A DNA stretch of 30,162 nucleotides from a virus. Taxonomy: Duplodnaviria; Heunggongvirae; Uroviricota; Caudoviricetes. The DNA lies in IMG/VR virus record IMGVR_UViG_2545824717_000013. One strand, given 5' to 3'. A program made the position numbers and the translations under genes. The stretch's first letter is position 1. Each line of letters begins with the position of its first letter. Positions 1,065 through 30,162 of the stretch are shown here, one piece after another. The notes below the pieces were generated by a model. That model saw only the letters and a program-made list of their open reading frames with translations. It was not told where the DNA came from and did not search any database.

Positions 1065-1070
1065 AATCAA

Positions 1071-1103: not shown

Positions 1104-1106
1104 GGT

Positions 1107-1129
1107 AGTGGCGGCAAAATGGCGACAGA
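1107..1129 (+). repeat. 23-bp direct repeat AGTGGCGGCAAAATGGCGACAGA (copy 1), candidate integrase arm-type site
   Basis: Exact second copy at about 24222..24244; both lie inside the prophage within about 100 bp of the att core. Confidence 0.4.
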
Positions 1130-1183
1130 CTTTTGCGTCCATCTTGCCTGTCGCCATCTTGAAATCATGCAAAGAGGTTTCAC

Positions 1184-1507
1184 ATGGAAGAACTTCACTT
1201 TGTTTACATCAATGCAAATGGTCGTATCGCTGTTCACTCTATACAGAGCATCAGTTATAGCGAAAATCATATACAGGGCATTTGTAAGAACACCGATCGA
1301 ATAAAAACCTTCCGAAAAGACCGCATTCTTAAACAGTACGATTCACCAGAACAAGCCATTCAGGAATGCGCGTCATTCCTCCCCGAAAGCTACTCACATC
1401 TCACTAAGCAGTCTGGTCCGAAAAAAATACATTCGATGTGTGTTTCACCGGATTTAAGAAAGCAGATAAAGAAAGATTGGTTGATAAGGCGAATGAACAA
1501 GGATTAA
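1184..1507 (+). CDS. WYL-like domain protein (N-terminal part of a probable WYL-BRCT gene split by a frameshift)
   Basis: ORF with AGAGG RBS; motif ...HIQGIC...RIKTFRKDRI resembles the WYL-domain FRxDRI signature; overlaps the next ORF in another frame. Confidence 0.5.
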   Translation: MEELHFVYINANGRIAVHSIQSISYSENHIQGICKNTDRIKTFRKDRILKQYDSPEQAIQECASFLPESYSHLTKQSGPKKIHSMCVSPDLRKQIKKDWLIRRMNKD

Positions 1508-1665
1508 CGGTAAGAACCTCTATAACCCAAAGCCTTCAGATGCTCTGTTGCGGTTACAATGCAGGCCCATCAAAAGTATCGGCAGCCAGGATGAAAGGCA
1601 CAATCATCATAGATGAGCTTGGCTTTATACATTTTCTTGAAACGGGTGAGATCCCAGATGAATAA
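1438..1665 (+). CDS. BRCT-like domain ORF (probable C-terminal part of the same gene, GTG-initiated in the ORF track)
   Basis: Sequence FTGFKKADKERLVDKANEQGLTV...IIDELGFIHFLETG resembles BRCT domains (as at the C-terminus of NAD-dependent DNA ligases); frame is open back to about 1408. Confidence 0.45.
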   Translation: MCFTGFKKADKERLVDKANEQGLTVRTSITQSLQMLCCGYNAGPSKVSAARMKGTIIIDELGFIHFLETGEIPDE

Positions 1666-1692
1666 AAACCTGCCGTAGCAGGTTCTCTTTCT
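1664..1692. terminator. Bidirectional hairpin between convergent BRCT-like ORF and ogr
   Basis: AACCTGC-cgta-GCAGGTT stem-loop flanked by A-run upstream and T-rich run downstream. Confidence 0.4.
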
Positions 1693-1907
1693 CAAAAATT
1701 CATATGCCCCTGACCACCTGGCAATGGATGTGGAGGAGCAGTAGCAATCAGTGCGGGTGTCACAATAAACCGGACCACTGTTTCATGAGTAACAAAAGTG
1801 CTCCCGCAGTTAATATTTTGGCACTGGCAGTAACGCTCTTTGGTGCTTTCAGTTACTTGAAAACTGCTCCTTGTGTGTGCCGCATGACCACACTTTGGAC
1901 AATTCAT
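1692..1907 (-). CDS. ogr: Ogr-type zinc-finger late-gene transcription activator
   Basis: MNCPKCGHAAH...ERYCQCQNINC: four-Cys zinc finger typical of P2 Ogr; start placed at internal Met of the 87-aa ORF to give about 72 aa. Confidence 0.8.
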   Translation of the reverse strand: MNCPKCGHAAHTRSSFQVTESTKERYCQCQNINCGSTFVTHETVVRFIVTPALIATAPPHPLPGGQGHMNF

Positions 1908-1978
1908 CATATCCAGATCCCTACCTTTGCTATCAGAATCATTGTAATGATACACAAAATATCAATATTGAGAACACT

Positions 1979-3079
1979 TTATTCCATTTCAAGATCATCA
2001 ATCTTCACTTCGAGTTCAATACTGGTTGTAAAACCGTTATCCGGGCTGACGGTATGTGTCAGAGTCGTAATGGTCCATTCCGCATCATCTATCGGCTGTT
2101 TAAAACCACTGACCTTCACAGGCATTTCCGTGTAGAGATCTGCCCGCCCTTCTGCCAGTTGTAGCGAAAATGACGCAACGCCGCGTTGCAGGCGTTCCCA
2201 CTGCATTTTCGCCGCTCGTTCGGCGTTGCTCCGGTTGGCATAAGTGCGATTAAGTACCAGCACGTTTTCATCCGTACCCACCAGGTAATCGCCCTGCTTC
2301 GCTTCTGGCTCTTTCTTCTGCTTCTTAGTTCTGCGCTTACGCTTCACCGTGGTGCTTTCTTTCTTCGCAGGTTCGCGGGTATGCAACCAGCTGGCAATTA
2401 CGCCCGTGTAGGCTCCGCGATCTGCCAGGGTAAATCGGTGACTGTCGCCGTCCTTGCGTGTGATAGTGATCACTGGCAGAGGTTTACCAGTGGCGCTTTT
2501 GCCCTGCCCCTGCCGGATGAATAACAGATTGCCATTTTTCACCGACGCGATGGCACCGTACTGTCGCGCCAGCCGCATCAGAAAACTGCCGTCACTCTCA
2601 TTAGTCTGGTCTATATGCTCCACGGGCTTATCCGACAGGTCTTTACCCAGTGCCATCTTCAGCTTGTGCCGCGCGGCTATTTCCTTCACCACTTCCCCGA
2701 CGGTGGTCTTATGCCACGATTTTTCACGGCGGGTATTCAGCGTTTCCCGAAAATCAGCACTTCGCGCCCGGATAGTCAGGCGGTCCGGTGCGCCAGTGTG
2801 TTCAATCTCGTCCACTGTGAATGCCCCTTTCGGGAAAAGCGGCTGCCCCTTCCAGCCCAGCGCCAGCGTAATAACCGCACCACGGCGCGGCAGCACGATT
2901 TTTCCGTCAGCGTCATCCAGCTCCAGATCAAGCTGGTCCGCTTCAAAGCCCCGGTTATCCGTCAGCGTCAAACTCATCAGGCGGTTATCCAGCACAGTGG
3001 TGATATCCCTGCCCTCAATACTGATGCTGAATGCGGGAGTTTTGTTGCCTTTGTTAAGCAGTTCAGAGCTGAAATTCAC
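1979..3079 (-). CDS. D: Phage late control/tail protein gpD
   Basis: 366-aa ORF (GTG start) at end of FETUD tail operon; recognised as P2 gpD-like. Confidence 0.85.
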   Translation of the reverse strand: MNFSSELLNKGNKTPAFSISIEGRDITTVLDNRLMSLTLTDNRGFEADQLDLELDDADGKIVLPRRGAVITLALGWKGQPLFPKGAFTVDEIEHTGAPDRLTIRARSADFRETLNTRREKSWHKTTVGEVVKEIAARHKLKMALGKDLSDKPVEHIDQTNESDGSFLMRLARQYGAIASVKNGNLLFIRQGQGKSATGKPLPVITITRKDGDSHRFTLADRGAYTGVIASWLHTREPAKKESTTVKRKRRTKKQKKEPEAKQGDYLVGTDENVLVLNRTYANRSNAERAAKMQWERLQRGVASFSLQLAEGRADLYTEMPVKVSGFKQPIDDAEWTITTLTHTVSPDNGFTTSIELEVKIDDLEME

Positions 3080-3561
3080 GACAGCAGCCCTCCCACCGTT
3101 TTACTGATATCACTTAAGGCAGACGTTGCCGTGTCCTGCAGATTATTCAGTTGCGCACTGAGATCACCGAACATATCGGACAGGGATTCATCCACTCGTT
3201 TGAGCGACAGGGTGAACTCAATCCGGCGCGGCATACCGTCGCGGAAAAACTCCGTTTTAGTCTGATTCAGTCCCTCAATCACATACATGCCGTAAATCGT
3301 GCCGCTGCCTTCAATCAGGGGCCATGCTTTCCCCTGTTCTGCCATCTGCTCCAGTGCCAGCAACGACAGCCTGCCACCTGTTATTTCCGGCATAAGAACA
3401 CCGGAAAGCGTCAGCATGTCGTTTTCCGGTCCCAGAAACTGCGTGGACGGACGTCGGTTTACCCGACTGTTTGCCGCATGTCGCCAGCTGCGTTGATACT
3501 GCAGTTCCTGATACGGAACGGTGCGCAGCATAAACACGTACAATCCCAGCACCATCATCAT
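3076..3561 (-). CDS. U: Phage tail protein gpU
   Basis: 161-aa ORF between tape measure and D, overlapping stop/start; P2 gpU-like. Confidence 0.8.
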   Translation of the reverse strand: MMMVLGLYVFMLRTVPYQELQYQRSWRHAANSRVNRRPSTQFLGPENDMLTLSGVLMPEITGGRLSLLALEQMAEQGKAWPLIEGSGTIYGMYVIEGLNQTKTEFFRDGMPRRIEFTLSLKRVDESLSDMFGDLSAQLNNLQDTATSALSDISKTVGGLLS

Positions 3562-6500
3562 GCGTCGTATCCCCCCTGATCGCTGTAGTTACTCCTGGCT
3601 TTTGCCTTCAGCCTGCGTTCACGTTCATCAAGCTGGCGTGCCACCTCCCGCGCAATATCCTGCGCACTTTGTCCTGGCTGCGTCTGAATGATGATCTGCG
3701 TCGGTGCCTCAATCCGTTGAACGAGCGGCACAGTGGCTGCGCGACTCACAATTGCTTCTCCACCTTTCGCGGGAAGTGCCAAAGGGTGCAACGGTGGAAG
3801 CTCTGCTGGCGCGGCAGCAACGCCCATCATTCCGGCAACAACGGCAGCCAGTGCAGCTGTATTTCTCCGGCTGGTCACATTTGCCGGGCCGTTAACAATT
3901 TCCGGCCCGTTTTCACCGACGATGCCAAACTGCCCGCGCGGGATATACCCGCCGCTGTCATACATCCCCGCAAAGCCATATCCCCATGATGGAAAACCAC
4001 CCGATGGCATCATCACTTTACCGTCTGCATTCACCGTCGCAGGTTTCTGACGCGTCACGCTTTCCGGCAGTTTTGCCTTTGCGGCCTCTTTACTGACAAT
4101 GCCGAGCTTCTCCAGCAACCAGGAAACGCCGGATTTCAGGGAGTCCAGCGGATGCATGACCATATTCAGCCCTTCCGCCAGTGCCTCCCCGAATCGCCGC
4201 CCCATTGCCGCTGCGCTCTGCAGTTCGGCAGAGGTCGACTTAACGGGCGTCAGCAGATCAGTAAACCAGCCCCACAGCGCCTGCACTTTGTCGCCAATCC
4301 ACTGGAACACGGGCTTAAGCGGTTCGAACGCTGCACTGATGGGACCTGCCGCCGCTTTGAATCCTTCCACCACGCCACCGAGAAATGCGGTGATGGGTTG
4401 CCAGTATTTCCAGACAACCAGCGCCACGCCCGCCAGTGCAGTAACCACAAGACCTATCGGACTGAGCAGAGCACCTAACAGACCAGATATGGCATACAGG
4501 GCAACGCGCAGCATCGCCAGTGGACCAGATGCCAGTACTCGCAGCACCGTGCCTGCGGCGGCCAGTCCACCGCGCAGTACCGCCAGAGGATTCATAAACA
4601 TCACAGCAACAGCACGTAAACCGGATAATCCAGACCGCAAAAGTGCAACCGGCGCACCTGCTACAGTTTTCAGGACATTTCCCGTCAGTGATGCCGTGCG
4701 GCGCAAAGACGACAACGGCGCAGTAAGTAAACCTGCGGCGTTGCCCGATGAAGCAAGCCCGCGTCGCAGCAGTGCCAGTGGTGCGCCAGCCAGCCAGGAC
4801 AACGCGCTGCTGGTTCGAGTTACTGCTGCCGTAACGGAAGATAACGTTTTGATACCCAACACAGAGAATCCCAGACGGATCACTGCCAGCGGCCCCAGCA
4901 CTGCAGCCAGCGCCACCGCTAAGGTGCCGAGGCCGACGGTAACCGCAGCCACAACAGCCGATGCTTTCATCAGTGTGCCTGTCAGTTCCGGGTTAGCTTC
5001 CACCCAGCGACGCAACGCCCCCGTGACGCTTTTCACCGTGTACAGAATATCCATCAGCGGCTGGCGCAGCGTTTCGCCCAGGCTGCTGAAGGTGTTCTGC
5101 GCTCCGGTTTTGACCAGCAACCACTGCGCAGAAAGTGAATCCTTGTTAATGTCGGATTCTTTCTGCATGGAGCCGAGCGCATCATTGCCCGCTGTCAGTT
5201 TTAACTGACGCTGCAGTTCCCGCAGGTTGTTTGCCAGTTTCGCCGCGTCATCGCCAAACTCTTTACCAAACAACATAGTCATGGCAGACAGGCGCTTGTC
5301 CTGCGGCAGCGCGTTTACCTTCTCCAGCACGCGCTGGATGGTTCCCATCGCATCCTTCGTCATCTGCTTTTCAATCACTTCAGGATTGAGTTTCAGCAGA
5401 TTCATCCCTTCAAAGAAACTCTTGCTTTGCATGGTGGCAATGGACAATTCACGCACCATCGCGTTTGCTGCACTGGCTGCAACCTCTGGCGCAGCGCCCA
5501 GTGTCAGGAAGGTGGAACCCAGCGCCGCCGCTTTACGATAATCCAGACGGTCAGCCACACCGCCCAGACGTTGCATCACATCAATGATGTCTGCCCCTTT
5601 CGACATGGCGTTATCATCCAGATAGTTCAGCGCATCACCGAGCTGTTCAATATTGCGGGTGGGGATTTTGTAGAGCTGGGCGATTTTCCCCAGACTTTCT
5701 GACAGTTCATCCGCTGGCAGCTCAAAGGCTGTTGCCGCCTTTGCTGCCGTACTGGCGAAGGCCAGCAGGTCACGTTTCTGATCTTCCCAGCTGTCGTCAG
5801 GGTTTGCGACGTTCATGCGCGCACCACCTTCAACCAGTGCAGCGAAGTCCACCGCACCGTTTTCCATCGGCAACTGTTCGCTGGCAGCCTTGATGGCATC
5901 CTGCATTTCATAAAAACGTGCAGTGCGGTTGCCATTATCGTCACGCAGACCATTGACCTGCTTTGCCACACCTTTCATGGCATCTTCCATGCTGGTATAG
6001 CTTTTTACTGCCGCCATCACTGGCGCACCCATTGCCAGCCCTGCAGCCGAGGTGGTGGCTCCGGCACCTGCAATACGATCACGCACCTCCAGCGAACGGG
6101 CATAACTGGCACGCGCTGCATTCATCCTGCGCTGAGCTTCCCCCAGTCGCTTCAGCCGCGCCTCCTGTTTCGAAAGTTCCTGGTTATAACGTGATGTTTC
6201 ACGGGCTAAACGGGCAGTTGCTCCCGCATCGTCTTTCGCAGAAATTCCCGCCCGGTACAGTTCAGCACGCACAAGCGCCGTCTGCTGCTGCAGCTTTTTC
6301 TGGCGTTCTTCCAGGCGCTGAACAGCCAGCCGTTGACGGCCCAGAGCAACAACCTGACGTTGCGAAGGCGGCCCCATCGCTCCCAGTTCCTGACTGAGCA
6401 AATTTGCACGCTGGCGGGCATAGTTCAGCCTGTCGCCTAATTTCTGATTTTCTGCCTGCAGCTTTCGGAAGCTGTCCAGACTGCTCCCGGCCTGATCAAG

Positions 6501-6635
6501 CTGCTTTATTGCATCGCGGGATTTTTTGACAGCAGCAGCCAGTTCTCTTGAACTGGCCTGCGCAGATCGAAATGGGCGGGTGAGCTTGTCAACCGCATTA
6601 AGAATGACCTGCAGACGCAGGTTGTTATCACTCAT
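3558..6635 (-). CDS. T: Tail tape measure protein gpT
   Basis: 1025-aa ORF, N-terminal coiled-coil-rich and central Ala/Gly/Leu-rich repeats; position after E/E'. Confidence 0.9.
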   Translation of the reverse strand: MSDNNLRLQVILNAVDKLTRPFRSAQASSRELAAAVKKSRDAIKQLDQAGSSLDSFRKLQAENQKLGDRLNYARQRANLLSQELGAMGPPSQRQVVALGRQRLAVQRLEERQKKLQQQTALVRAELYRAGISAKDDAGATARLARETSRYNQELSKQEARLKRLGEAQRRMNAARASYARSLEVRDRIAGAGATTSAAGLAMGAPVMAAVKSYTSMEDAMKGVAKQVNGLRDDNGNRTARFYEMQDAIKAASEQLPMENGAVDFAALVEGGARMNVANPDDSWEDQKRDLLAFASTAAKAATAFELPADELSESLGKIAQLYKIPTRNIEQLGDALNYLDDNAMSKGADIIDVMQRLGGVADRLDYRKAAALGSTFLTLGAAPEVAASAANAMVRELSIATMQSKSFFEGMNLLKLNPEVIEKQMTKDAMGTIQRVLEKVNALPQDKRLSAMTMLFGKEFGDDAAKLANNLRELQRQLKLTAGNDALGSMQKESDINKDSLSAQWLLVKTGAQNTFSSLGETLRQPLMDILYTVKSVTGALRRWVEANPELTGTLMKASAVVAAVTVGLGTLAVALAAVLGPLAVIRLGFSVLGIKTLSSVTAAVTRTSSALSWLAGAPLALLRRGLASSGNAAGLLTAPLSSLRRTASLTGNVLKTVAGAPVALLRSGLSGLRAVAVMFMNPLAVLRGGLAAAGTVLRVLASGPLAMLRVALYAISGLLGALLSPIGLVVTALAGVALVVWKYWQPITAFLGGVVEGFKAAAGPISAAFEPLKPVFQWIGDKVQALWGWFTDLLTPVKSTSAELQSAAAMGRRFGEALAEGLNMVMHPLDSLKSGVSWLLEKLGIVSKEAAKAKLPESVTRQKPATVNADGKVMMPSGGFPSWGYGFAGMYDSGGYIPRGQFGIVGENGPEIVNGPANVTSRRNTAALAAVVAGMMGVAAAPAELPPLHPLALPAKGGEAIVSRAATVPLVQRIEAPTQIIIQTQPGQSAQDIAREVARQLDERERRLKAKARSNYSDQGGYDA

Positions 6636-6761
6636 CGTTGGCCCCGCTTCTCTGAATCGCTTTATACCGCCATTCCAGCACTTCGGTCAGCGGCATAACG
6701 TCAGTAACGGATGGCGGCCAGTGAAAAATGGTGGCGATATCTGCCACCAGATCGTCAACCG

Positions 6762-7064
6762 TCAGGCTGTCGGTAAACCGGCAAGCACCGACTTCTTCAA
6801 CAAAAAAGTGACAACCTCAACCGACATGGCAGTGAGATCTGCCGGGTCCATCTCTGCAATTTCCTGTGCAGTCAGTGCCGGACTGGAGATGCGGGGGATC
6901 ACGGTCATCATCGCGTTTACATCCATATCCATAATGGCCTGCAGGCGTGTACCGCGCAGCGCACCGGACTGCGGTTTACGCAGCACAATTTCGGTGATTT
7001 CTGTTTTACCGCGCTTGATGGGGGTATCCAGTTGAATGGTCTTTTCAGTCTGCTTATCGCTCAT
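6762..7064 (-). CDS. E: Tail assembly chaperone gpE (E' extension by -1 frameshift to about 6633)
   Basis: 100-aa ORF between FII and T; contains T6G slippery run near its 3' end. Confidence 0.75.
   Translation of the reverse strand: MSDKQTEKTIQLDTPIKRGKTEITEIVLRKPQSGALRGTRLQAIMDMDVNAMMTVIPRISSPALTAQEIAEMDPADLTAMSVEVVTFLLKKSVLAGLPTA
6801..6808 (-). other. Slippery heptamer TTTTTTG for programmed -1 frameshift (E to E+E')
   Basis: Minus-strand CTTTTTTG within codons V-T-F-L-L-K-K of gpE; alternative frame appears to end in a TGA overlapping the ATG of T. Confidence 0.5.
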
Positions 7065-7118
7065 TTTGCTGTCCTGTCAATTGGGTTCTGGCGCGGTATC
7101 CCGCGCCGTTCAGATATA

Positions 7119-10493: not shown

Positions 10494-11067
10494 CATTCGG
10501 CGCGGTGCTGGTATCTATTGCCGTCACCGCGTCAATGTAATCCAGCACAGCGTTAAGCCGGGTTGTTTCTGCCTGCGTCAGTTTCCGTCCGGCCTGTAAT
10601 TTCAGCTGAATCAGACTAATGGAAGCCATTGCAGCATCAATCAGTGACTGGCGCTGTGCTTCTGCCGCGTCTACTGCGGCGCTATGCTGTGCCTCAGTAT
10701 CCGTCACCCATTTCTCACCATCCCATTTATCGTATGGCGTTAATGGGGCGATAGTGGTTGTATTATTAGGGTAATCACCCGGAGCTGTGATTTCTTTTGA
10801 TTCTCCTGTTTCGGTGCTAAAGACGATTTCACCGCGATGGTCTGGCACATATTCCCATGAGTTAAAATCTGCAGAACGGCAGATTGCATAACCAGCTTTG
10901 TATGCGCCTGGAGCATCTAAACAGGAACATGCCGGAATGCCGACACCAACGGCAAGATATTCAGTTGATATGGAAATATATTCCCGTGTTTCACCATCAT
11001 AATTATAGACAGTAATATCCCCCGCCTTCGTGGCAATAAACTCGCTATTTAATACAGCGCTATCCAT
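10465..11067 (-). CDS. Tail fibre assembly protein
   Basis: 200 aa, immediately downstream of tail-fibre C-terminal segment; 3' ends of the two tfa genes overlap convergently. Confidence 0.8.
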   Translation of the reverse strand: MDSAVLNSEFIATKAGDITVYNYDGETREYISISTEYLAVGVGIPACSCLDAPGAYKAGYAICRSADFNSWEYVPDHRGEIVFSTETGESKEITAPGDYPNNTTTIAPLTPYDKWDGEKWVTDTEAQHSAAVDAAEAQRQSLIDAAMASISLIQLKLQAGRKLTQAETTRLNAVLDYIDAVTAIDTSTAPNVIWPELPEA

Positions 11068-11537
11068 TATGCAGCCCTCACAATGTAGTTAAATGCGATG
11101 TTGCGTGGACGGACACCGAAATAAGAAGTAACACCATTCATTGTCAAATTTCCAGAGCCAAAAGCGGTAAAACCAGAACCAGCATTAACTGCCGAATCCG
11201 CGTTTCTGACAAAGTTTTTGGGAGGTGAACCGGAGACACCAGCCGAAATATCATCAGCGTTACCGCCATTGCCGTGGTGGTTAGTTATCTTTGTTTCCGC
11301 CTGCGCCGTCAACAAACCTCGTCCAGAGTCAACCCCGCGCCCGTCATCCCAGCCGCGAATAAACTCACCACGTAAATCAGGCAATTTATTTGTCGGATAA
11401 GCCTTTGCCAGTTCCGGGTATTCTTCAGCAGAAAAAGCTGCACCATTGCATTTCAGCCAGCCTGTTGGCGGAGTGGCTGAAGGCCACGGAACAGGGACAC
11501 CAACAGGTAATGCAGAGCCTTCTCCCAAAGCCGTCAT
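11067..11537 (-). pseudogene. Tail fibre (gpH-like) C-terminal receptor-binding segment lacking the constant N-terminal part
   Basis: 156 aa with tail-collar-like motif PVGVPVPWPSATPPTGWLKCNGAAFSAEEYPELAKAYP; only about 21 bp separate its first codon from the terminase gene on the other strand. Confidence 0.75.
11519..11533. other. Partial gix-like half-site (right end of invertible segment) abutting a deletion junction
   Basis: CTTCTCCCAAAG is the inverted counterpart of the outer half of the left site; the expected second half is not recognisable. Confidence 0.35.
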
Positions 11538-21362: not shown

Positions 21363-22376
21363 ATGACCATCAGAAAACAGCCGAACGGAAAATGGTTGTG
21401 CGAGTGTTACCCGAACGGGCGTGACGGCAAGCGCGTGCGCAAGCAATTTGCGACAAAGGGCGAGGCTGTAGCATTCGAAAACTTCACCATGGATCAAGTG
21501 AACAAAAAGCCGTGGCTGGGTGAAAAGGAAGATCGGCGGCGTTTGTCAGAATTGATTGAGCAGTGGCACTCCCTTTACGGCCAGACGCTCGCAGACCCCA
21601 AGCGCCTGATGGCGAAACTGAATATTATCTGCAATGGCCTAGGCGATCCCGTCGCCTCTGAATTAACCGCCGGTGACTTTACGAAATATCGTGAAGCACG
21701 GTTGAAAGGAGAGGTACGTAACGAAGAAGGCGCGCTAATGTCGCCAGTAAAACCACGCACGGTAAACCTTGAACAGCGTAACTTATCATCCGTTTTTGGC
21801 ACCCTTAAGAAGTTGGGCCACTGGTCAGCGCCTAACCCACTCGCCGGGCTACCGACATTCAAAATCGCAGAGGGTGAATTGGCATTCTTAGCCTTGGACG
21901 AAATTAAACGCCTGCTTGATGCCTGCGCTGATTCTCAAAGCCCTAGCCTATTGATGATCGCAAAGGTATGCCTAGCTACCGGCGCGCGGTGGAGTGAAGC
22001 CGAAAACCTTCAAGGCCATCAGTTATCAAAATATCGGATCACCTATACCAAAACCAAAGGCAAGAAAAACCGAACTGTACCGATATCTCAGGAGCTATAC
22101 GACGAACTACCCAAAAACAGGGGGAAGCTGTTCACGCCATGCAGAAAAGCTTTTGAACGAGCAGTGAAGCGGGCCAATATAGACTTACCAGCGGGACAAT
22201 GCACTCATGTGCTACGCCATACTTTCGCCAGTCATTTTATGATGAACGGCGGAAACATACTTGTTTTGAGAGATATTTTGGGTCATTCTGATATCAAGAT
22301 GACCATGGTATATTCACACTTTTCACCAGATCATCTTGAAGACGCAGTTTATAAAAACCCACTCAACTTTTTATAA
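21363..22376 (+). CDS. int: P2-family tyrosine integrase
   Basis: 337 aa with C-terminal catalytic motifs (ATGARWSEA...HVLRHTFASHFMMNGG...LGHSDIKMTMVYSHF). Confidence 0.9.
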   Translation: MTIRKQPNGKWLCECYPNGRDGKRVRKQFATKGEAVAFENFTMDQVNKKPWLGEKEDRRRLSELIEQWHSLYGQTLADPKRLMAKLNIICNGLGDPVASELTAGDFTKYREARLKGEVRNEEGALMSPVKPRTVNLEQRNLSSVFGTLKKLGHWSAPNPLAGLPTFKIAEGELAFLALDEIKRLLDACADSQSPSLLMIAKVCLATGARWSEAENLQGHQLSKYRITYTKTKGKKNRTVPISQELYDELPKNRGKLFTPCRKAFERAVKRANIDLPAGQCTHVLRHTFASHFMMNGGNILVLRDILGHSDIKMTMVYSHFSPDHLEDAVYKNPLNFL

Positions 22377-22385
22377 TGTACAGAC

Positions 22386-24128
22386 TTACATTGATAAATA
22401 ATCCAACTCATCTTTCATAGGAATAATTTGTTCATATAATCGATGATATGATTTACCAATTGCCCCTCTAAATTGAATTAATTTAGGTGGATTATTACCT
22501 ATATTAATAATATGATCTTGTGCAATACCCGGATAAGGATCAATGAAAATTATTTCAGCGACCTCTAATTGATATGCTTTTTTTGCACAAAGTTCACAAG
22601 GACTTGCTGTAGTATACAACTTACCACCTTGGACACCAACGCCACCATATTTAGATAATTGTAAAAAGGCATTTTCTTCAGCATGTAAAGCTCTGGTATG
22701 GACCTGATTCCCTTTTTTATTATCATCAAGACTATTATGAATATCCTTGAAGCAATATGACAAATTACGTCCTTTAAAAATTTCAGAGCTTGATTCAATC
22801 GCTCTAAACTTTATTAAATTACTTTTAGCTTTCTTTCTAAAAAGAGCATCATTTCGCTCATATGAGCTATATACTTTCGAATCAAAATCATTGATCAACC
22901 CATCGAGTGATCTCATTGAACATGGTATCTGCCCTTTAGCTACATCATTCCAACCAACTGATTTAATTGAATTATCATTATCTGTAACAACGGCACCGAC
23001 CTGCCTCGATATACATCCAGAGTTTAATTTAACAGTATATGCGACCTGCATAACTCGCTCCATCGCTGTAGGAGTGATCAATCCAGGATGCTTCATTAGA
23101 GCGATATACCATGCAAGTTGTGCTTTAAGTATGTTATTGTTATCAAACTCATTTTTAGGATTATAAAGATGTATATCTGAAATTTCTATGCATTTCGTTA
23201 CATTAGGGTTCGTTAAATGTTTATATTGATTGTCTTTATCTCCTTTTCCTGATTCAATATCATCAATGTGTTTAATGCGCTCAGATGAAAACTTGTGTAG
23301 CTTCTGTAAATATTTTTTCCTATGCTCATCAGGAGCATTAATTGATACCAAATGGAATGCAGCATATCTATCTTTAAAGAATTTAGCTTCATATGGATTA
23401 CGTATAGCATCAATAACTACTAATGCCTTACCACCTTGGCTTTTTCTAATTAGCTTAATGACCCTATTAATAGTTTCAGGCAAATGAAATACCGATTTTG
23501 GATCAAATTCTTCTGTTTCATAGTTTGTTTTTACTTCACCAAGCCGTCTAACAGATTTTCCAGCGGCCTGATAAGTTGATACATAAAGACCTGTATTTAT
23601 CTCATTAAGTTCTTTTTTGAAGTTATTAGTGAAAAACCTAACCAAATGCAATGTTTTTCTTATGTTAGATACATCTAGATTATCGAGATCTAATTCTTGA
23701 CTATGATCAATAAGTGCTTTTAATATATCCGTCCTTATTTTTCTAAGTTGTGTTTTTGAAAATGCTCCTTCATTAAGTATCTTGTTTAATTTATCTTCAT
23801 CAATGCTATCTTTAGTTGACGACGTGATGAAGTGTGAAAGTTCAGTATGTGACATTGCTAACAAATAAACTGATAGCAAGTCACTAACCTTGATTGAGTA
23901 AAATGCCTCCCAATGATTCTCAGTGAAATCCTTAACTATCTTATAACGCTGTAAATCTAAACCATTATAAAAATCAGTTAATTTATCCACATCGGGAAAT
24001 ACTGTCTCATTACTTTCTAAAATAGTTGCTGCTGTAGTACAACCAGAACCAGTTCTTCCAGTTAAGCCAACTAGAATAAACTGCCCATTTTCTAAAAAAA
24101 GTTCACTTACGAATTTCTGTGTTTTCAT
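22386..24128 (-). CDS. Kinase-like plus cytidine/dCMP-deaminase fusion protein (antiviral dCTP deaminase DCD/AvcD-like)
   Basis: AT-rich ORF; C-terminal HAEENAF...SPCELC zinc-binding deaminase signature; N-terminal GLTGRTGSG P-loop-like motif; start placed at Met preceded by GGGG RBS (ORF track extends to 24284). Confidence 0.75.
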   Translation of the reverse strand: MKTQKFVSELFLENGQFILVGLTGRTGSGCTTAATILESNETVFPDVDKLTDFYNGLDLQRYKIVKDFTENHWEAFYSIKVSDLLSVYLLAMSHTELSHFITSSTKDSIDEDKLNKILNEGAFSKTQLRKIRTDILKALIDHSQELDLDNLDVSNIRKTLHLVRFFTNNFKKELNEINTGLYVSTYQAAGKSVRRLGEVKTNYETEEFDPKSVFHLPETINRVIKLIRKSQGGKALVVIDAIRNPYEAKFFKDRYAAFHLVSINAPDEHRKKYLQKLHKFSSERIKHIDDIESGKGDKDNQYKHLTNPNVTKCIEISDIHLYNPKNEFDNNNILKAQLAWYIALMKHPGLITPTAMERVMQVAYTVKLNSGCISRQVGAVVTDNDNSIKSVGWNDVAKGQIPCSMRSLDGLINDFDSKVYSSYERNDALFRKKAKSNLIKFRAIESSSEIFKGRNLSYCFKDIHNSLDDNKKGNQVHTRALHAEENAFLQLSKYGGVGVQGGKLYTTASPCELCAKKAYQLEVAEIIFIDPYPGIAQDHIINIGNNPPKLIQFRGAIGKSYHRLYEQIIPMKDELDYLSM

Positions 24129-24221
24129 ATATCCCCACATCGAAAAGTATTGATATTTTTTTATTTTTTCATCACTTCCAGTATAAATTATCGTAGGTAG
24201 ATATTCTATTGCATTAGTATA

Positions 24222-24244
24222 AGTGGCGGCAAAATGGCGACAGA
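24222..24244 (+). repeat. 23-bp direct repeat AGTGGCGGCAAAATGGCGACAGA (copy 2), candidate integrase arm-type site
   Basis: Identical to 1107..1129. Confidence 0.4.
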
Positions 24245-24336
24245 AGAGTAAAAATGCATAACACTTGCTAATACGCCAAAACACTAAATCAATGATAATA
24301 TTGATAAATTATTGCATCTCAACCATTAATAATAGT

Positions 24337-24385
24337 ATGTAGGAATTTCGGACGCGGGTTCAACTCCCGCCAGCTCCACCAAATA
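24337..24385. repeat. attR of prophage remnant / attL of the downstream island: 49-bp ssrA 3'-end duplicate
   Basis: Identical to 1016..1064. Confidence 0.8.
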
Positions 24386-24416
24386 TTGATGTACTGAAGT
24401 TCAGTAAAGTCTACTA

Positions 24417-24450: not shown

Positions 24451-24547
24451 CGTCTATTGTAGTCTAGTGAGAATTGCTGAGAACTACGAGTTATGGCACC
24501 CTGAATGGGACCCACGAAGATGGGTCCTAAAATCGAGGGTCCCAAAC

Positions 24548-25777
24548 ATGGCCAAAATCGCTAAGAAGCTCACTGACACTGAAATCAAAAGCACCAAACC
24601 TGCCGAAAAAGAGGTTAACCTTTTTGACGGCGATGGTTTGCTGTTGCGAATCGCTCCCCTGGCGAAGGGAGGGAAGAAAAATTGGTATTTCAGATATGCA
24701 GTGCCTGTGACCAAAAAGCGAACTAAGGTGAGCTTAGGAACCTATCCTCACCTTACACTTGCGAAGGCACGAGCTTTACGTGATCAATACTTGTCGTTGC
24801 TTACAAATGGTATAGACCCCCAAGTTCATAACAACCAAAAAGCCAATGCACTGAAAGATGCCACGGAACATACATTTCAAGCAGTAGCCAAGAAGTGGCT
24901 TGATGAGAAAGTCAAAACGTCAGGCATCTCCCAAGATCATGCTAACGACATCTGGCGAAGCCTAGAGAGAAATATCTTTTCCACATTGGGTGATACCCCA
25001 ATTAAGGAGATTCGCCCTAAAATGCTTAAACAGCATTTAGAACCCATAGAAAAACGAGGTGTCCTTGAAACACTTCGCCGCATCATATCCCGCCTGAATG
25101 AAATTTTCCGCTATGCAGCAACAGAAGAACTCATAGAATTCAACCCGGCAGACAACCTGGGGCAACGGTTCAGCAAGCCAAAAAAACAGAATATGCCAGC
25201 ATTACCCCCTTCCGAACTCCCTCGCTTCTTGGTTGCTCTAAACAATGCTTCTATCCGTTTGGAAACAAGGCTACTGATTGAGTGGCAACTTCTCACATGG
25301 GTTCGCCCAGGTGAAGCTGTTCGCACAAGATGGTCAGATATTGATATTGAAACTGGCATGTGGAACATCCCGGCGGAGTTTATGAAAATGAAGAAGCCTC
25401 ACAAAGTTCCACTGAGCAAAGAAGCTTTGCGAGTTTTGGATTTAATGAAAGTCATCAGCGGGCATAGAGAGTGGGTGTTCCCCAGTATCAAAGCTCCACT
25501 CAATCACATGCATGAACAAACAGCTAATGCGGCCATAATCCGTATGGGTTTCGGAGGTGAGCTTGTAGCTCACGGTATGCGATCCATTGCTAGAACGGCT
25601 GCTGAGGAGTCTGGCAAGTTTAGGACTGATGTCTTAGAAGCCGCCCTTGCCCACTCGAAGAAAGATGAAATAATTGCAGCCTACAATCGTGCAGAGTATC
25701 TCACTGAACGGGTGGTTCTCATGCAATGGTGGAGTGACTATGTTTCGTCTCAAAAATGCAAAGTTATTGCCGCATAA
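24548..25777 (+). CDS. intA: P4/CP4-57-type tyrosine integrase
   Basis: N-terminal LTDTEIKSTKP...DGDGLLLRI...WYFRY typical of P4-family integrases; start placed at MAKIAKK with GAGGG RBS (ORF track starts at 24467). Confidence 0.88.
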   Translation: MAKIAKKLTDTEIKSTKPAEKEVNLFDGDGLLLRIAPLAKGGKKNWYFRYAVPVTKKRTKVSLGTYPHLTLAKARALRDQYLSLLTNGIDPQVHNNQKANALKDATEHTFQAVAKKWLDEKVKTSGISQDHANDIWRSLERNIFSTLGDTPIKEIRPKMLKQHLEPIEKRGVLETLRRIISRLNEIFRYAATEELIEFNPADNLGQRFSKPKKQNMPALPPSELPRFLVALNNASIRLETRLLIEWQLLTWVRPGEAVRTRWSDIDIETGMWNIPAEFMKMKKPHKVPLSKEALRVLDLMKVISGHREWVFPSIKAPLNHMHEQTANAAIIRMGFGGELVAHGMRSIARTAAEESGKFRTDVLEAALAHSKKDEIIAAYNRAEYLTERVVLMQWWSDYVSSQKCKVIAA

Positions 25778-25839
25778 CTCTCCCATGATGGATTAACTAT
25801 CTTGATTTAGTTAAAGAATTAATAATCACACCATTAACC

Positions 25840-25889
25840 TATGTGGACTAAGCATAGCCATTTACAAATGGGGACATTGAGTCCACATA
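25840..25889. repeat. 10-bp inverted repeat TATGTGGACT / AGTCCACATA with 30-bp spacer upstream of the serine recombinase gene
   Basis: Perfect 10-bp arms in an AT-rich intergenic region. Confidence 0.3.
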
Positions 25890-26059
25890 ACGAAAGCTGT
25901 CGGTCATATCAGCTAAATAATTCACATCTCTTCTCGATTATCATACACCTCGAAGATCTACCAAATTCGCTCTAATCAATGATAAAACAGTTGAATTCGG
26001 TTGAAATTTGATCAATTTTATCCACTACATTGTATTGAATCATCCATGAGGTTTCGTGC

Positions 26060-27616
26060 ATGGCTAGCGAAAATGACAAAAATCATAGAGTTAGGGTCGC
26101 GCAGTACTTGAGGATGTCTACCGACCATCAGCAATATTCTTTACATAATCAGTCCGAATATATCAAAGATTATGCTGAAAAGAACAATATGGAAATCGCT
26201 TATACCTACGATGATGCAGGTAAGAGCGGAGTCAGTATCGTAGGCAGGCATTCTTTGCAGCAGTTACTTAGCGATGTAGAACAAAAGAAAATAGATATAC
26301 AGGCTGTATTATTTTATGATGTGAGCCGTTTTGGTCGTTTTCAAAATAGTGATGAAGCGGCATATTATTCCTTTCTATTTGAGAGAAATGGTGTAGATCT
26401 TATATATTGTTCCGAACCTATACCCACTAAAGATTTCCCTTTAGAGTCCTCTGTTATACTGAATATAAAAAGATCTAGTGCTGCATATCACAGCAGGAAT
26501 CTATCTGATAAGGTATTTATAGGGCAAGTAAATTTAATAAAGCTTGGTTATCATCAAGGCGGTATGGCTGGTTATGGGCTGAGACGTCTTTTAGTAGACG
26601 AAAATGGCATAGCTAAAGAAATATTGAGTTTCCGCAAAAGAAAGAGTATTCAAACAGATAGGGTAATATTAATTCCGGGACCAAAAAATGAAATAAAAAT
26701 TGTAAATAGAATATATGATCTCTTTATAGATAATAACGTCCCAGAATTCATTATTGCTGAGAGATTAAATGAACAGAACATACCTGCAGAAAATGGAACA
26801 TTATGGACTCGTGCAAAAATACATCAAATTTTGACAAATGAAAAATATATTGGAAACAACATATATAACAAAACCTCATCTAAATTAAAAAGTAGGCTTG
26901 TAAAAAACCCCAAACATGAATGGGTTAGATGTGACAAGGCATATAAACCTATTATTTCAAAGAAAAAATACAATAAAGCTCAAGAAATAATTCAGCTCCG
27001 ATCCATTCATTTGACTAATGAAGATCTATTAGAAAAACTAAAACAAAAATTAGAATCTAATGGAAAACTATCAGGCTTTATCATTGATGAAGATGATACA
27101 GGCCCTTCATCTTCTGTTTATAGAACCCGATTTGGTGGTCTTTTAAGAGCATATACTTTGATTGGTTATAAGCCAGAACATGATTACAGCTATCTCAAAA
27201 TAAATGAAGCACTAAGATCATTTTACTCAGAGATAATTGAGGATTTTAAGGGTGAAATTTTAAAAAGTAACTGTCATATAGACGAGTATAAATATGCCCC
27301 AATGCTTTACATCAATGATGAGTTTTTAATTTCCGTCCTTGTTACTAAATGCATACATATGAAATCAGGTAAACTTAGATGGAAAGTCCGGTTTGATAAC
27401 TCACAGAAAGCAGACATAACAATTGTTATACGAATGAATTCACAAAATATTTCACCTCTTGATTTTTATATCATACCAAAGATTGAAAACGAATATAATA
27501 AAATGTGCATGACGGAAACAAACAACATTCGATTAGATCTCTATAGATTTGATAATCTTGATAAACTTCTACAAATTATTACTCGCATGAAAGTGAGGGA
27601 ACTATATGCTGCCTGA
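26060..27616 (+). CDS. Large serine recombinase
   Basis: 518 aa; N-terminal resolvase-type catalytic domain (VAQYLRMSTDHQ...YTYDDAGKSG...VSRFGR) followed by a long recombinase/zinc-ribbon-type extension; AT-rich. Confidence 0.8.
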   Translation: MASENDKNHRVRVAQYLRMSTDHQQYSLHNQSEYIKDYAEKNNMEIAYTYDDAGKSGVSIVGRHSLQQLLSDVEQKKIDIQAVLFYDVSRFGRFQNSDEAAYYSFLFERNGVDLIYCSEPIPTKDFPLESSVILNIKRSSAAYHSRNLSDKVFIGQVNLIKLGYHQGGMAGYGLRRLLVDENGIAKEILSFRKRKSIQTDRVILIPGPKNEIKIVNRIYDLFIDNNVPEFIIAERLNEQNIPAENGTLWTRAKIHQILTNEKYIGNNIYNKTSSKLKSRLVKNPKHEWVRCDKAYKPIISKKKYNKAQEIIQLRSIHLTNEDLLEKLKQKLESNGKLSGFIIDEDDTGPSSSVYRTRFGGLLRAYTLIGYKPEHDYSYLKINEALRSFYSEIIEDFKGEILKSNCHIDEYKYAPMLYINDEFLISVLVTKCIHMKSGKLRWKVRFDNSQKADITIVIRMNSQNISPLDFYIIPKIENEYNKMCMTETNNIRLDLYRFDNLDKLLQIITRMKVRELYAA

Positions 27617-28502
27617 AAAAAATGAATTCTCAATAATTCAAATTGAGATTGCAAAAATAAAATTTCTTAACCCACGAACAAGAAATAAGGTAGTGCATGA
27701 AGAAATAAAGGAAAGCATAAAAAAAAGAGGATTAAGCAAGCCAATAAGCGTAAGAGCTATTGATGAAGGCGATTTCAAATATGCTTTAATTTGTGGTCAA
27801 GGGAGAATAGAGGCTCTCGTTGCATTAGGTGAAACTATTATTCCAGCAATTATAAGAGATGTATCAGAAGAAGATGCTTACGTTATGAGTTTAGTTGAAA
27901 ACATTGCAAGGAGAAGACCACGTTCTAATGAGTTATTACAGGTGATTAAAGACATGAAAATCAGAGGACTTTCAGACTCCGAAATAAGTGAGATTACTGG
28001 ATATTCATCGAACTGGGTGAGCAGTATTAATATGCTACTTGATAAGGGAGAGCATAAACTTCTCTCAGCAGTCGAACGGGGTAATTTGCCTCTGTATCTC
28101 GCAGTGCAATTTGCAAGATGTGAAACTGAGGAAGCACAAGATATTCTTACCGAAGCATATGATAAAAAATTAATAAAAAGTCGGGACATTATAAAGATAA
28201 AACACATTCTAAATCAAAGAACAGTTGGGAATAAAGGTGCAAAAGCAGCCGGATTTTATTATCACAAACCATCAAAAAGGATGACTGCAGAGGAGTTGAT
28301 TGAGCTTTATGAAAATAGTATCGCTGAACATAAATCTGTTTATAACAACTCAAAATTCATAAAAACCAACCTACTAATAGTAAATGAGATTTTTAACATC
28401 ATAATGATGAATAAAAGCTTTCAACATATACTTGAACAAGAGAATCTTTCAGAACTACCATCTCAGATATTAACCCCAGTAAACAAAGAGGTATTAAAAT
28501 GA
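27606..28502 (+). CDS. ParB/sulfiredoxin-like domain protein 1
   Basis: 298 aa; N-terminal IQIEIAKIKFLNPRTRNK...ICGQGRIEAL resembles ParB N-terminal nuclease-like domain; overlaps recombinase stop. Confidence 0.65.
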   Translation: MLPEKNEFSIIQIEIAKIKFLNPRTRNKVVHEEIKESIKKRGLSKPISVRAIDEGDFKYALICGQGRIEALVALGETIIPAIIRDVSEEDAYVMSLVENIARRRPRSNELLQVIKDMKIRGLSDSEISEITGYSSNWVSSINMLLDKGEHKLLSAVERGNLPLYLAVQFARCETEEAQDILTEAYDKKLIKSRDIIKIKHILNQRTVGNKGAKAAGFYYHKPSKRMTAEELIELYENSIAEHKSVYNNSKFIKTNLLIVNEIFNIIMMNKSFQHILEQENLSELPSQILTPVNKEVLK

Positions 28503-29395
28503 TTCAGATACGTTTTGGCGATAATTTTATTTACCTGGAAACTAATAAGTTAATTCCATCTAAGGAATTATTAGAAAACGTAAAGCGAAGCCATAAATAT
28601 CATCAAATAGTTACCTCTATCGAAAGCTTAGGTATTATTGAACCAATAATAGTATTCTATGACAAAGATAAAGATGTCACTAAGATACTTGATGGCCATT
28701 TAAGGGTTGAGGCTTTAAAAGACTTAGGTATAGAAAAAGCTCCATGTATACTTTCGAGCATAGATGATGCTTTCACTCCTAACAAACAAGTGAATCATAT
28801 AAATGTAGTTGAAGAACATAGAATGATAATTAAGTCTCTGGCAAAAGTATCAATTGAAAAACTTAGTGCTGCTTTGGGCATATCTGTTGATGCCATAAAA
28901 GATAAAGCGAATGTGATGAACGGCATAGATCCAAGTGTAATTGCGAAACTTTCTGATAAACCTATACCTAAGGCTACATTTGACGTTTTGAGGAAAATGA
29001 AGCCAATTCGCCAAATTGAAGCAGTCGGTACAATGATTAATTTTGATAATTATAGTAAAAAATTTGCAATGAGCATCTTGGATGCAACACCGGCATCGAT
29101 GATAGTAAATAAAGGGAAAAACACTCCCTATAAAAAGGACATAAAAAAAACCATACTTCGTCTGGAACAAGAAATGGCAACAACTTCGGAAGAAACGAAA
29201 AAGCTTCAAACCGAGTATGGTTCAGATATGTTGAAATTCGTTATAATCCAGTCATATATTAATAAATTACTTGGCAATTCTAAAGTTCTTCATTGGTTCT
29301 TAGAAAACGAGGTTGATTATCTTAATGAGTTAAAAAGAATTTCTAGAATAAATTCTTTGGATGATAAGACTCTTACTGAAAACAGCAAGTCATAG
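28499..29395 (+). CDS. ParB/sulfiredoxin-like domain protein 2
   Basis: 298 aa; IIEPIIVF...LDGHLRVEAL ParB-like motif; start overlaps stop of previous gene (ATGA). Confidence 0.6.
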   Translation: MIQIRFGDNFIYLETNKLIPSKELLENVKRSHKYHQIVTSIESLGIIEPIIVFYDKDKDVTKILDGHLRVEALKDLGIEKAPCILSSIDDAFTPNKQVNHINVVEEHRMIIKSLAKVSIEKLSAALGISVDAIKDKANVMNGIDPSVIAKLSDKPIPKATFDVLRKMKPIRQIEAVGTMINFDNYSKKFAMSILDATPASMIVNKGKNTPYKKDIKKTILRLEQEMATTSEETKKLQTEYGSDMLKFVIIQSYINKLLGNSKVLHWFLENEVDYLNELKRISRINSLDDKTLTENSKS

Positions 29396-29775
29396 TCATG
29401 GTTTTATATAGCCTAAATAAACCAAGAAGTATACTTACACAACGACCTTCACGCCGAAGAAGCTGTCAGATACGCCAGCAACCAAAGCATTACGTTTAAG
29501 TGTCAGTCATTGATACGAAGGGATAACTGCGTATCAGCAGCCGGACATTGAGTCGAATAAAGGCTGGTAGAGAGGGACAGTTCTGTGTCACCGGGAGATT
29601 CGTCAGAAACATCAGCGGCAGAACAGATGAACCAGCAATTGGTAGTGCACAGAAAACTCTCCAGTATTTAATTATTCAACTTAACACTAAAAAAAATCAC
29701 ATAGTTAATATCATAATTTTTCTTTGGTCTACGTATGCGAGAGATATTGTGGCTTTAACCGGGTATTAGGAGTCG

Positions 29776-30162
29776 GGTAATGACTCCAACTTATTGATAG
29801 TGTTTTATGTTCAGATAATGCCCGATGACTTTGTCATGCAGCTCCACCGATTTTGAGAACGACAGCGACTTCCGTCCCAGCCGTGCCAGGTGCTGCCTCA
29901 GATTCAGGTTATGCCGCTCAATTCGCTGCGTATATCGCTTGCTGATTACGTGCAGCTTTCCCTTCAGGCGTGATTCATACAGCGGCCAGCCATCCGTCAT
30001 CCATATCACCACGTCAAAGGGTGACAGCAGGCTCATAAGACGCCCCAGCGTCGCCATAGTGCGTTCACCGAATACGTGCGCAACAACCGTCTTCCGGAGC
30101 CTGTCATACGCGTAAAACAGCCAGCGCTGGCGCGATTTAGCCCCGACATAGCCCCACTGTTC
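29776..30162. mobile_element. IS1 insertion sequence, partial (continues beyond window)
   Basis: Begins with IS1 terminal inverted repeat GGTAATGACTCCAACTTATTGATAGTG and matches IS1 sequence through the window end. Confidence 0.9.
29791..30162 (-). CDS. insB: IS1 transposase InsB, C-terminal part (5' end outside window)
   Basis: ...[88 protein letters not shown] matches IS1 InsB. Confidence 0.85.

Follow-up and report, generated by a model that had tools for sequence, protein, structure and literature searches.

A conserved operon of an atypical large serine recombinase and two ParB-like proteins, a candidate self-mobile module within other mobile DNA

The virus record IMGVR_UViG_2545824717_000013, a stretch of 30,162 nucleotides (nt) that we call the window at its full length, carries at positions 26060-29395 a trio of overlapping genes that encode an atypical large serine recombinase (SR) and two ParB-like proteins (ParB1 and ParB2). 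The trio is the enterobacterial version of a widespread, self-contained recombination module, which has four genes in most lineages. In our preferred reading, to which we assign a probability of roughly 40%, this is a compact integrative module that moves itself and lives within other mobile elements, namely plasmids, prophages, islands and transposons, with the ParB-like proteins as its helpers. The SR-ParB1-ParB2 combination is apparently undescribed. We found no system-level match to the trio in PADLOC, NCBIfam or the names of PHROGs; in PADLOC-DB 2.0, SR had no match and ParB1 and ParB2 gave marginal matches to type II methyltransferases through their ParB_N domains. The full-text literature, searched by domain combinations and by RefSeq accessions, returned no publication on the trio, which is not mentioned in the Dnd/ParB comparative paper or in the Tn7-cargo paper either. 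A preliminary description of the window, made from its letters, had likewise not recognised the combination, and the PADLOC-DB 2.0 and literature searches bear this out.

An old operon and its proteins

The species-level scan, in which one genome per species was searched with an alignment of SR, identified relatives of SR in at least 570 genomes, and gene order was read in the best 80 of these loci. SR, ParB1 and ParB2 follow one another in this order in 70 of the 80, while eight loci are cut by a contig edge and two look degraded. The loci belong to Alpha-, Beta- and Gammaproteobacteria, Desulfosarcina, Myxococcales, Bdellovibrionaceae and Solibacter. Distant copies keep the overlapping gene layout, with identities of 42-46% across the full length of SR, 31-39% for ParB1 and 33-38% for ParB2; they were found on a human-gut viral contig and on plasmids from Agrobacterium fabrum C58 (pAt), Piscinibacter, Paraburkholderia and Aminobacter. 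IMG/VR holds 120 relatives, and PLSDB has 103 plasmids with a ParB2 homolog. Among complete E. coli genomes, 660 of 5,426 (12%) carry the trio at 96-100% identity, including the E. coli B derivatives BL21(DE3), C41(DE3) and Rosetta2(DE3); all 662 copies are chromosomal and none is on a plasmid. Close copies are also present in Klebsiella, Enterobacter, Salmonella, Citrobacter and Cronobacter. The trio is an old, strictly syntenic operon. Its three genes occur together very widely and not at this locus only, and they are not the integration or partition module of one known family of plasmids or integrative and conjugative elements, since there is no ParA, no linkage to repABC, and the neighbours vary.

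The fourth gene of the module is found in most alpha- and betaproteobacterial loci, where a small divergent open reading frame (ORF) with a helix-turn-helix (HTH)-like motif, ..ERTVxNW..G..GPSG.., lies directly 5' of SR. This HTH gene is absent from the E. coli version, and an integrase occupies its place. The position is taken by other genes elsewhere: in a subclade of viral contigs (L160, L165 and L174-L186), a NusG-like gene replaces it directly 5' of SR, and L160 has NusG-like genes at 6064-7101 and 10957-11460, the second paralog (55% amino acid identity) being 3' of ParB2. In Limnobaculum (L041), a 208-amino-acid (aa) serine recombinase of the resolvase/invertase type at 1430-2056 lies directly 5' of SR, at the usual spot of the HTH gene.

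SR (26060-27616, + strand, 518 aa) has a Resolvase domain (PF00239, 2.5e-21) and a Recombinase domain (PF07508, 6e-22, aa 210-312). Its layout comprises a catalytic part at aa ~10-120 with the motif YLRMS20TDHQ, an alpha-E helix, the recombinase domain at aa ~170-315, an HNH_repeat-like unit at aa 320-373, and then a helical and beta-rich C-terminal domain that extends to aa ~500. The residues Y16, R18, S20, D87, R90 and R93 are invariant in 46 diverse sequences, and the best family matches are the phage integrase family phrog_95 (1.4e-68) and CcrB. The AlphaFold model of SR (pLDDT 71) matches the att-bound serine integrases 9dxh/9dxd, Bxb1 (9iu2) and PhiC31 (9tep), although the match covers only ~330 columns and resolvase folds match too. 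The preliminary description had named a large serine recombinase; the domains agree with this, with the qualification that the protein is atypical because a zinc-ribbon match (PF13408) is absent. SR also has no coiled coil, its C-terminal ~200 aa have a single conserved Cys, and no small recombination directionality factor is evident in the module. Its last ~190 residues are family-conserved, yet no solved structure in the PDB matched them and no integrase structure aligned there. The search of the library with this C-terminal region returned 1,359 cluster representatives, the full-length ones sharing an architecture of ~520 aa.

The segment at aa 320-373 (window 27017-27178) is one copy of a unit of ~55 aa, known in Pfam as HNH_repeat or 'homing endonuclease associated repeat', that is present 4-7 times in tandem in related large serine recombinases (P0293, P0305 and P0320); the direct Pfam match of the window SR to HNH_repeat is below threshold (E = 0.042). 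To judge from their sequences, these arrays suggest a recombinase lineage that may read DNA by repeats in place of a zinc ribbon.

ParB1 (27606-28502, + strand) and ParB2 (28499-29395, + strand) are both 298 aa long, and their genes are tightly packed, with an overlap of 11 nt between SR and ParB1 and of 4 nt between ParB1 and ParB2. ParB1 has ParB_N (1.3e-13) and RepB (8.6e-8) domains and is a full-length, fairly canonical ParB in which an N-terminal ParB/Srx domain precedes an HTH and the C-terminal region. It keeps the motifs LNPRxRN and LVENIARR, has CGQGR where GERR is expected, and its best sequence match in the PDB is Spo0J (1vz0, 1.6e-12). ParB2 has a RepB domain (2.2e-24) and a weak ParB_N match (1.1e-5), and is organised as an N-terminal domain with LLDGHxR, an HTH/RepB domain and a long C-terminal helix at aa 215-259. 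Foldseek matches its model (pLDDT 75.5) to ParB with CTPgammaS (7bnr), Noc and KorB over ~200 columns, while its nucleotide-site motif (LLDGHxR; DGHLR) is nearer to those of kinase- or nuclease-type ParB/Srx proteins such as SerK and SbnI. The two had been described as paralogous ParB-like proteins; the ParB and RepB domains are there, and the paralogy is remote (30% identity over 63 aa, E = 0.001), each protein having its own orthologs across phyla. The PHROG families of both are of 'unknown function' (phrog_3951 for ParB1). No ParA-like gene was found in the operon or among its frequent neighbours.

Hints of a protein complex come from the gene overlaps and from one SR-ParB1-like fusion. The latter, P0416 (773 aa), joins Resolvase, Recombinase, the SR-family C-terminal domain and a RepB-type C-terminus in one polypeptide; it could be a true fusion that hints at physical interaction, or a frameshift across the 11-nt overlap.

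Ends of the module and the repeats around it

The module is a discrete block of ~3.9-4.4 kb. The Agrobacterium plasmids pAtC58 and pAt1D1460 have in common a block of 3,904 bp, comprising the HTH gene, SR, ParB1 and ParB2, at 96.9% identity, with flanks that are otherwise unrelated, and the 19-bp motif CCTTGARNGGRRTYGAACC stands at both ends of this block in direct orientation. Among 188 loci, the exact motif was found at the ends of the Agrobacterium block and at one site in pAtCFBP5507a, which lacks the module, immediately behind AbiEii; a copy with two mismatches closes a Fic cassette on an A. vitis plasmid that is also without the module. By their sequence and position, these single copies look like unoccupied target sites.

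The block common to the enterobacterial variants stops 51 bp past the stop codon of ParB2, at ...ACTTACACAAC (window 29446). This conserved tail (29396-29446, + strand, final letters ...AAGTATACTTACACAAC) is the right limit of the sequence common to all enterobacterial copies, and megablast matches at ~94% stop here. A run of GGTTAT units, of ~3 to 9 copies, begins right after the ParB2 stop in L016 (13337-13370) and L115 (13337-13385), and the window has one or two of them (29397-29410). In three contexts (L003, L016 and L115), found in an argW island of E. coli, an ssrA island of Enterobacter and a contig from IMG/VR, the tail is followed by a 3' fragment of a second P4-type integrase. This fragment covers the last ~70-100 codons and is 65-72% identical in protein to the upstream integrase, and in a comparison with an intact integrase the clear homology begins at about the last 68 codons. 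The trio thus lies between two direct copies of the integrase end.

Similar arrangements occur in other lineages. A direct duplication of the upstream gene, which ends a few bp past the stop codon, flanks the module in 7 of 113 loci; Enterobacteriaceae repeat the integrase end and Paracoccus the final 80 TniQ codons (242 bp, 88%), and the other cases are a complete NusG-like paralog, an HTH_3 gene, a small ORF (247 bp, 85%) and two shorter repeats. A generic scan for flanking repeats in 118 loci gave a mean best repeat of 11.3 vs 9.6 in the reversed-sequence control; short repeats of the att type are therefore not generally detectable, and a handful of long duplications stood out.

Two further kinds of evidence on the boundaries were considered and set aside. 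The two copies in Dyella lie inside an identical duplication of >21.5 kb and are hence uninformative. Trio-only contigs of ~3.6-4.0 kb, which are present in many public short-read assemblies, were rejected as excised circles. One of them, a Logan contig of 3,981 bp (L017), looks circular because its ends overlap by 24 nt, but the overlap falls within a 36-nt exact repeat of the two integrase-end copies and most likely reflects an assembly break.

The window copy and its carriers

The window is the E. coli ssrA locus, and its sequence is identical to that of enterotoxigenic E. coli strains such as TW10598 and M9682-C1. It begins with smpB (1-483) and ssrA (698-1060), followed by a P2-like prophage inserted in ssrA (1100-24284) with its own integrase at 21363-22376. 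The slot adjoining this integrase holds a 632-aa anti-phage dCTP deaminase (22386-24284, - strand; PADLOC dCTPase, 2.5e-140), which is annotated likewise in TW10598. A second copy of the ssrA 3' end (24334-24390, + strand), matching ssrA in essentially all E. coli genomes, is an attachment-site repeat that forms the left edge of an older ssrA island and lies outside the module; this island, with a P4-type integrase and the trio, is placed behind the second ssrA end, with the P2-like prophage in front of it. The tyrosine integrase (24467-25777, + strand) has the domains Arm-DNA-bind_3, Phage_int_M and Phage_integrase and matches PRK09692 (8.6e-133), in agreement with its earlier assignment to the CP4-57/P4 type; RefSeq places its start at 24548, which gives 409 aa. 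After a 282-bp spacer, the three genes follow as overlapping ORFs exactly as in the preliminary description, and their AT-richness is evident in a GC content of 0.30-0.37 over 26001-29500, against 0.42-0.46 for the integrase and a value of ~0.5 over most of the window.

To the right of the conserved tail, a secondary junction with an IS3-family remnant (29447-29775) takes the place of the integrase 3' fragment of L003, L016 and L115; it is annotated as an IS3 fragment in O157:H16 strain 98-3133, and the junction is common to Salmonella, Klebsiella and O157:H16 copies. Identity profiles place its sequence in L018, L021 and L014 and not in L003, L016 or L115. A partial IS1 follows (29776-30162, - strand, RefSeq annotation), which has the sequence GGTAATGACTCCAACTTATTGAT at 29776 and extends past the end of the window. 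The island is truncated by this IS1, as had been noted before, with the IS3-family remnant lying in between; everything 3' of the trio has been lost in the window strain through events that involve insertion sequences (IS), and chromosomal genes come next in matching genomes.

The non-coding spacer (25778-26059, + strand) presumably is a promoter or control region. It contains an imperfect palindrome at 25840-25889 with arms of 24 and 24 nt around a 2-nt centre, the outer part of which is the 10-bp inverted repeat (IR) reported in the preliminary description, TATGTGGACT at 25841-25850 and AGTCCACATA at 25880-25889. An IR of this kind is not expected by chance within 282 bp, and the geometry of the palindrome is reminiscent of serine-integrase sites. 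The repeat is real, and its perfect form is allele-specific: perfect 10-bp arms are found in the window allele and in L117 only, while five other enterobacterial variants have uncompensated changes, most commonly a T-to-G change in the right arm without compensation in the left. We therefore rejected the IR as a conserved site, its arms not being kept by compensatory changes. The spacer as a whole has a mean identity of 96% across seven enterobacterial variants, among them L117, whose trio is only ~80% identical, and in one variant it is conserved more (96-99%) than the genes. No Rfam family matched in it, and scans for promoter-like sequences and terminators gave nothing above shuffle or chance expectation. 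Family-wide, a crude palindrome scan of ~150 loci showed no enrichment of palindromes near the operon, either upstream or downstream, and detected no res-like repeat array or parS-like palindrome.

In Enterobacteriaceae, the trio (96-100% identity) follows one integrase allele, which is almost never without it; the remaining integrases at ssrA have only ~80% identity and no trio. The genes 3' of the trio vary and include Mrr/HNH nucleases, a ThiF-ThiF-UvrA-like cluster, Gabija, HNH_5, or DUF6119 with HxsABCD. As the trio is constant and the genes after it are variable, the trio is not the variable cargo. The preliminary description had placed it among the variable defence cargo of a P4-like satellite, which is contradicted by this constancy, by its position inside the integrase-end duplication, and by the presence of a P4-type integrase within 10 kb of only 2 of the 80 distant loci. 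The association between the trio and this integrase is a lineage-specific accident. In O157:H16 98-3133, the island runs on to a relaxase and ends near ypjA, which identifies the carrier as an integrative mobilisable island.

Other islands were informative about their own content. Two ThiF-family genes and a UvrA-like ABC ATPase lie 3' of the trio in islands of Klebsiella quasipneumoniae and Cronobacter malonaticus (L015, 15773-20091, and L020, 15071-19389), and this cluster is possibly another defence-type system. The E. coli argW island (L003, 10807-12764 and 20118-25141) holds a trio copy at a second site and is a mosaic of tandem islands, with an AbiL-like RloB+AAA pair, TIGR04141/DUF6119 by hxsDBCA, a relaxase and several integrase fragments.

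Across ~100 distant loci, the nearest substantial ORFs on either side are very diverse, and most are genes of other mobile elements. The upstream neighbours include NusG-like proteins (13, from one subclade), Fic (7), tyrosine integrases (6) and other serine recombinases (4-5), as well as AbiEii, HipA, RES and McrBC, while phage tail and lysis genes (4-5 of each kind), integrases (5), DUF3987 (4), methyltransferases and helicases are among those found downstream. Known defence proteins make up ~10-15% of 211 immediate neighbours, among them SoFic (9), AbiE, dGTPase, ZacA, a type I restriction enzyme, PsyrT, HEC-05 and PDC candidates. The neighbourhood is that of the accessory regions of mobile elements and is compatible both with a defence gene and with a small parasite of other mobile elements. 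In two loci, L023 (1-4378) and L085 (2351-4186 and 8335-8580), the genes tniA-tniB-tniQ of a Tn5053/Tn7-like element end directly 5' of SR, with no tniR between tniQ and SR; in L085, from Paracoccus, the last ~80 codons of TniQ are repeated 3' of ParB2.

Mechanism, alternatives and known systems

The presumed activity of SR is integration and excision between short att sites, as the discrete boundaries and flanking repeats suggest. SR would insert and excise the module at a specific site, which would typically coincide with the 3' end of a resident gene or lie just beyond it, and the module would supply or leave a second copy of the end of that gene. The zinc-ribbon/coiled-coil region with which such recombinases usually read DNA would be replaced by the homing-endonuclease-type repeat and the family-specific domain, the former being suited to the recognition of long, specific targets. 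The ParB-like proteins, translationally coupled to SR, may be its obligatory DNA-binding partners, NTP-gated clamps or bridging proteins that would choose or assemble the recombination sites or set directionality; the pair could thus do the work of the absent SR domains and of the recombination directionality factor of phage integrases. The integrase type of SR, its constrained catalytic residues and the repeat-marked block ends in several unrelated lineages point to self-mobility, and the presence of the module almost always in other mobile DNA offers a horizontal route to an element without transfer functions. To our knowledge, every characterised large serine recombinase of the integrase type mobilises the element that encodes it. 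As for the window copy, it would have been captured beside one ssrA-targeting P4-type integrase allele with loss of the HTH gene, and its original right junction would have been replaced through IS3 and IS1 events, so that the module is probably immobile as a unit there.

Several observations weigh against self-mobility. No perfect pair of occupied and empty sites with both flanks matching was found. In Agrobacterium, left flanks that end in one copy of the motif were found, and the matching right flank was not; no plasmid had both flanks of an occupied site contiguous; IS elements were too many in Sinorhizobium pSymA for a reading; a Citrobacter variant is not present in E. coli; and an integrase-fragment junction without the trio was never found in E. 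coli. The three integrase-fragment junctions are 90-95% alike and hence represent one ancestral event, and the number of copies per E. coli genome has a median of 1 and a maximum of 2, with no independent insertions seen among 5,426 genomes. The flanking repeats are heterogeneous, are present in a minority of loci, and could belong to the host elements, by tandem islands or cassette exchange. The 19-bp Agrobacterium motif, when reverse-complemented, resembles a tRNA T-arm, and no tRNA genes were found at the Agrobacterium repeat. Identity mosaics have breakpoints inside the integrase and just 5' of SR, with an integrase body at 75-80% and a trio at 95% in one variant and an integrase and spacer at 95-99% with a trio at ~80% in another, which indicates that homologous exchange has also shuffled integrase, spacer and trio. 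Furthermore, no att-like dyad-symmetric site was recognised, and SR is without the zinc ribbon and coiled coil by which known large serine recombinases recognise att sites and control directionality. The preliminary description had offered a nested element with its own recombinase or a DNA-targeting defence system; the nested element is the better of these two options, its boundaries and direct repeats having been recovered and a clean empty/occupied pair not.

A further and rather doubtful proposal is that ParB-type NTP-gated clamps are wired to a site-specific recombinase, either as a target selector or directionality switch for an integrase that has no zinc ribbon, or to mark foreign or rival mobile DNA for covalent cutting by the recombinase. 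Neither arrangement has apparently been described. If true, the clamp as selector would be a new solution to the choice of att sites, and the clamp as mark would constitute a recombinase-based system of immunity or of action against mobile genetic elements (MGEs).

An alternative is a new anti-phage or anti-plasmid conflict system, which we consider unlikely. The ParB-like clamps would load on or mark invading or competing DNA and recruit SR, which would cut it by covalent double-strand breaks or scramble it, while the HTH protein would silence the operon until needed. The trio of Enterobacteriaceae is found beside Gabija, Mrr/HNH nucleases, the RloB+AAA pair, DUF6119+Hxs and the dCTP deaminase, and the share of known defence proteins among the neighbours of distant loci would agree with such a role; but integrases and other mobile-element genes share this neighbourhood bias, so that association alone does not discriminate. 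The trio is often at prophage ends by tail and lysis genes, a usual spot for accessory genes, and it is AT-rich, compact, tightly coupled and sporadic, being present in 12% of the E. coli genomes. Proteins of the ParB/Srx fold that act as nucleases or NTPases in conflicts have been documented (Maindola 2014, as cited in PMC10853773). However, no known or candidate defence family in PADLOC-DB 2.0 was matched, no hit in a published screen was found, and the trio has no toxin or classical effector domain; self-mobility also explains a repeat-bounded module with an integrase-type recombinase more simply.

Still less probable, in our judgement, is a stability module of the carrier comparable to parCBA of RK2, in which SR would resolve multimers or tandem arrays at an adjoining site and the ParB-like proteins would organise the nucleoprotein complex or serve as factors for silencing or of a centromere-like kind. 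Both ParB-like proteins appear, from their models, to have the clamp fold of ParB, Noc and KorB, and the plasmid operons lie among toxin-antitoxin and Abi genes, such as AbiE and Fic in pAtC58, HigBA in Paraburkholderia and RES-Xre in Aminobacter. A functional system for resolving multimers can be part of an integrative mobilisable island, as in SGI1 (PMC12217951), and res-site hunters take the orientation seen for the Tn5053-like tniA-tniB-tniQ that abut SR in L023 and L085 beside a resolvase gene with an occupied res site (PMC7765201). Nevertheless, this argument concerns two loci only, neither of which has tniR between tniQ and SR; the 662 E. coli copies are all chromosomal, SR is a large recombinase of the integrase type instead of a small resolvase that ends in an HTH, ParA is absent, and the crude palindrome scan detected no res-like array or parS-like palindrome. 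A role as a helper of the ssrA island, regulating the P4-type integrase or the excision of the island, is very improbable: the trio of Enterobacteriaceae is always 3' of the same integrase allele and the 282-bp spacer is unusually conserved, but the distribution has already largely refuted this role, given the scarcity of that integrase near distant loci (2/80), the presence of the operon on plasmids and prophages without it, and a native junction at which the trio interrupts a duplicated integrase end.

Under the self-mobility model, if true, the operon would be an integrative element of minimal size that hitch-hikes on the mobile elements it targets, and SR would represent a lineage of serine integrases that read DNA by means of ParB-like partners and homing-endonuclease-type repeats. 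Such a lineage would matter both to the study of how integrases work and to genome engineering as a source of tools. The defence alternative, if true, would bring in a defence or anti-MGE system of unusual mechanism. Either reading extends the uses of the ParB clamp fold past segregation, nucleoid occlusion and transcription control, for an operon that is present in hundreds of species and in 12% of complete E. coli and is annotated merely as 'recombinase' and 'partition protein'. Its presence in E. coli B strains makes genetics and biochemistry immediately feasible.

Among known systems, SR shares its catalytic and recombinase domains, in sequence and in fold, with large serine recombinases such as PhiC31, Bxb1, A118/LI, CcrA/B/C and TnpX/TndX, and the module likewise has its recombinase gene at the edge of a discrete, repeat-bounded block in mobile DNA. 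Unlike these, SR is without the zinc ribbon and coiled coil, has an HNH_repeat-like unit and a domain that lacks a match in the PDB, and is always co-encoded with two ParB-like proteins. ParB1 and ParB2 have in common with ParB/Spo0J, Noc and KorB an N-terminal ParB domain, an HTH and a C-terminal helical region, according to Foldseek and phmmer, but they form two distinct paralogs that are always paired and coupled to a recombinase, lack a ParA or KorA partner, and have GQGR (ParB1) or DGHLR (ParB2) in place of GERR. The comparison with ParABS gives the same result, with the ParB-type N-terminal domain and HTH present in both proteins and with the cognate ParA/Soj ATPase and the GERR motif absent.

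The multimer-resolution operon parCBA of RK2/RP4 also has three genes, with a serine recombinase first and two accessory proteins; it lies beside plasmid toxin-antitoxin genes and in the target region of transposons that hunt res sites. Its ParA is a small resolvase, and its ParB resembles staphylococcal nuclease and is not a ParB/Srx clamp; beyond the catalytic domain, the two operons are not known to be related in sequence. More generally, resolution of the Tn3/RK2 type relies on a small resolvase with a C-terminal HTH and a res site with several subsites, whereas SR has 518 aa and a recombinase domain. Finally, as in the defence hotspots of P2- and P4-type integrases, the E. coli trio comes directly after a P4-type integrase and is followed by variable defence genes, but it differs from such cargo in being constant, in lying inside the integrase-end duplication, in having no match in PADLOC, and in occurring elsewhere mostly without such integrases.

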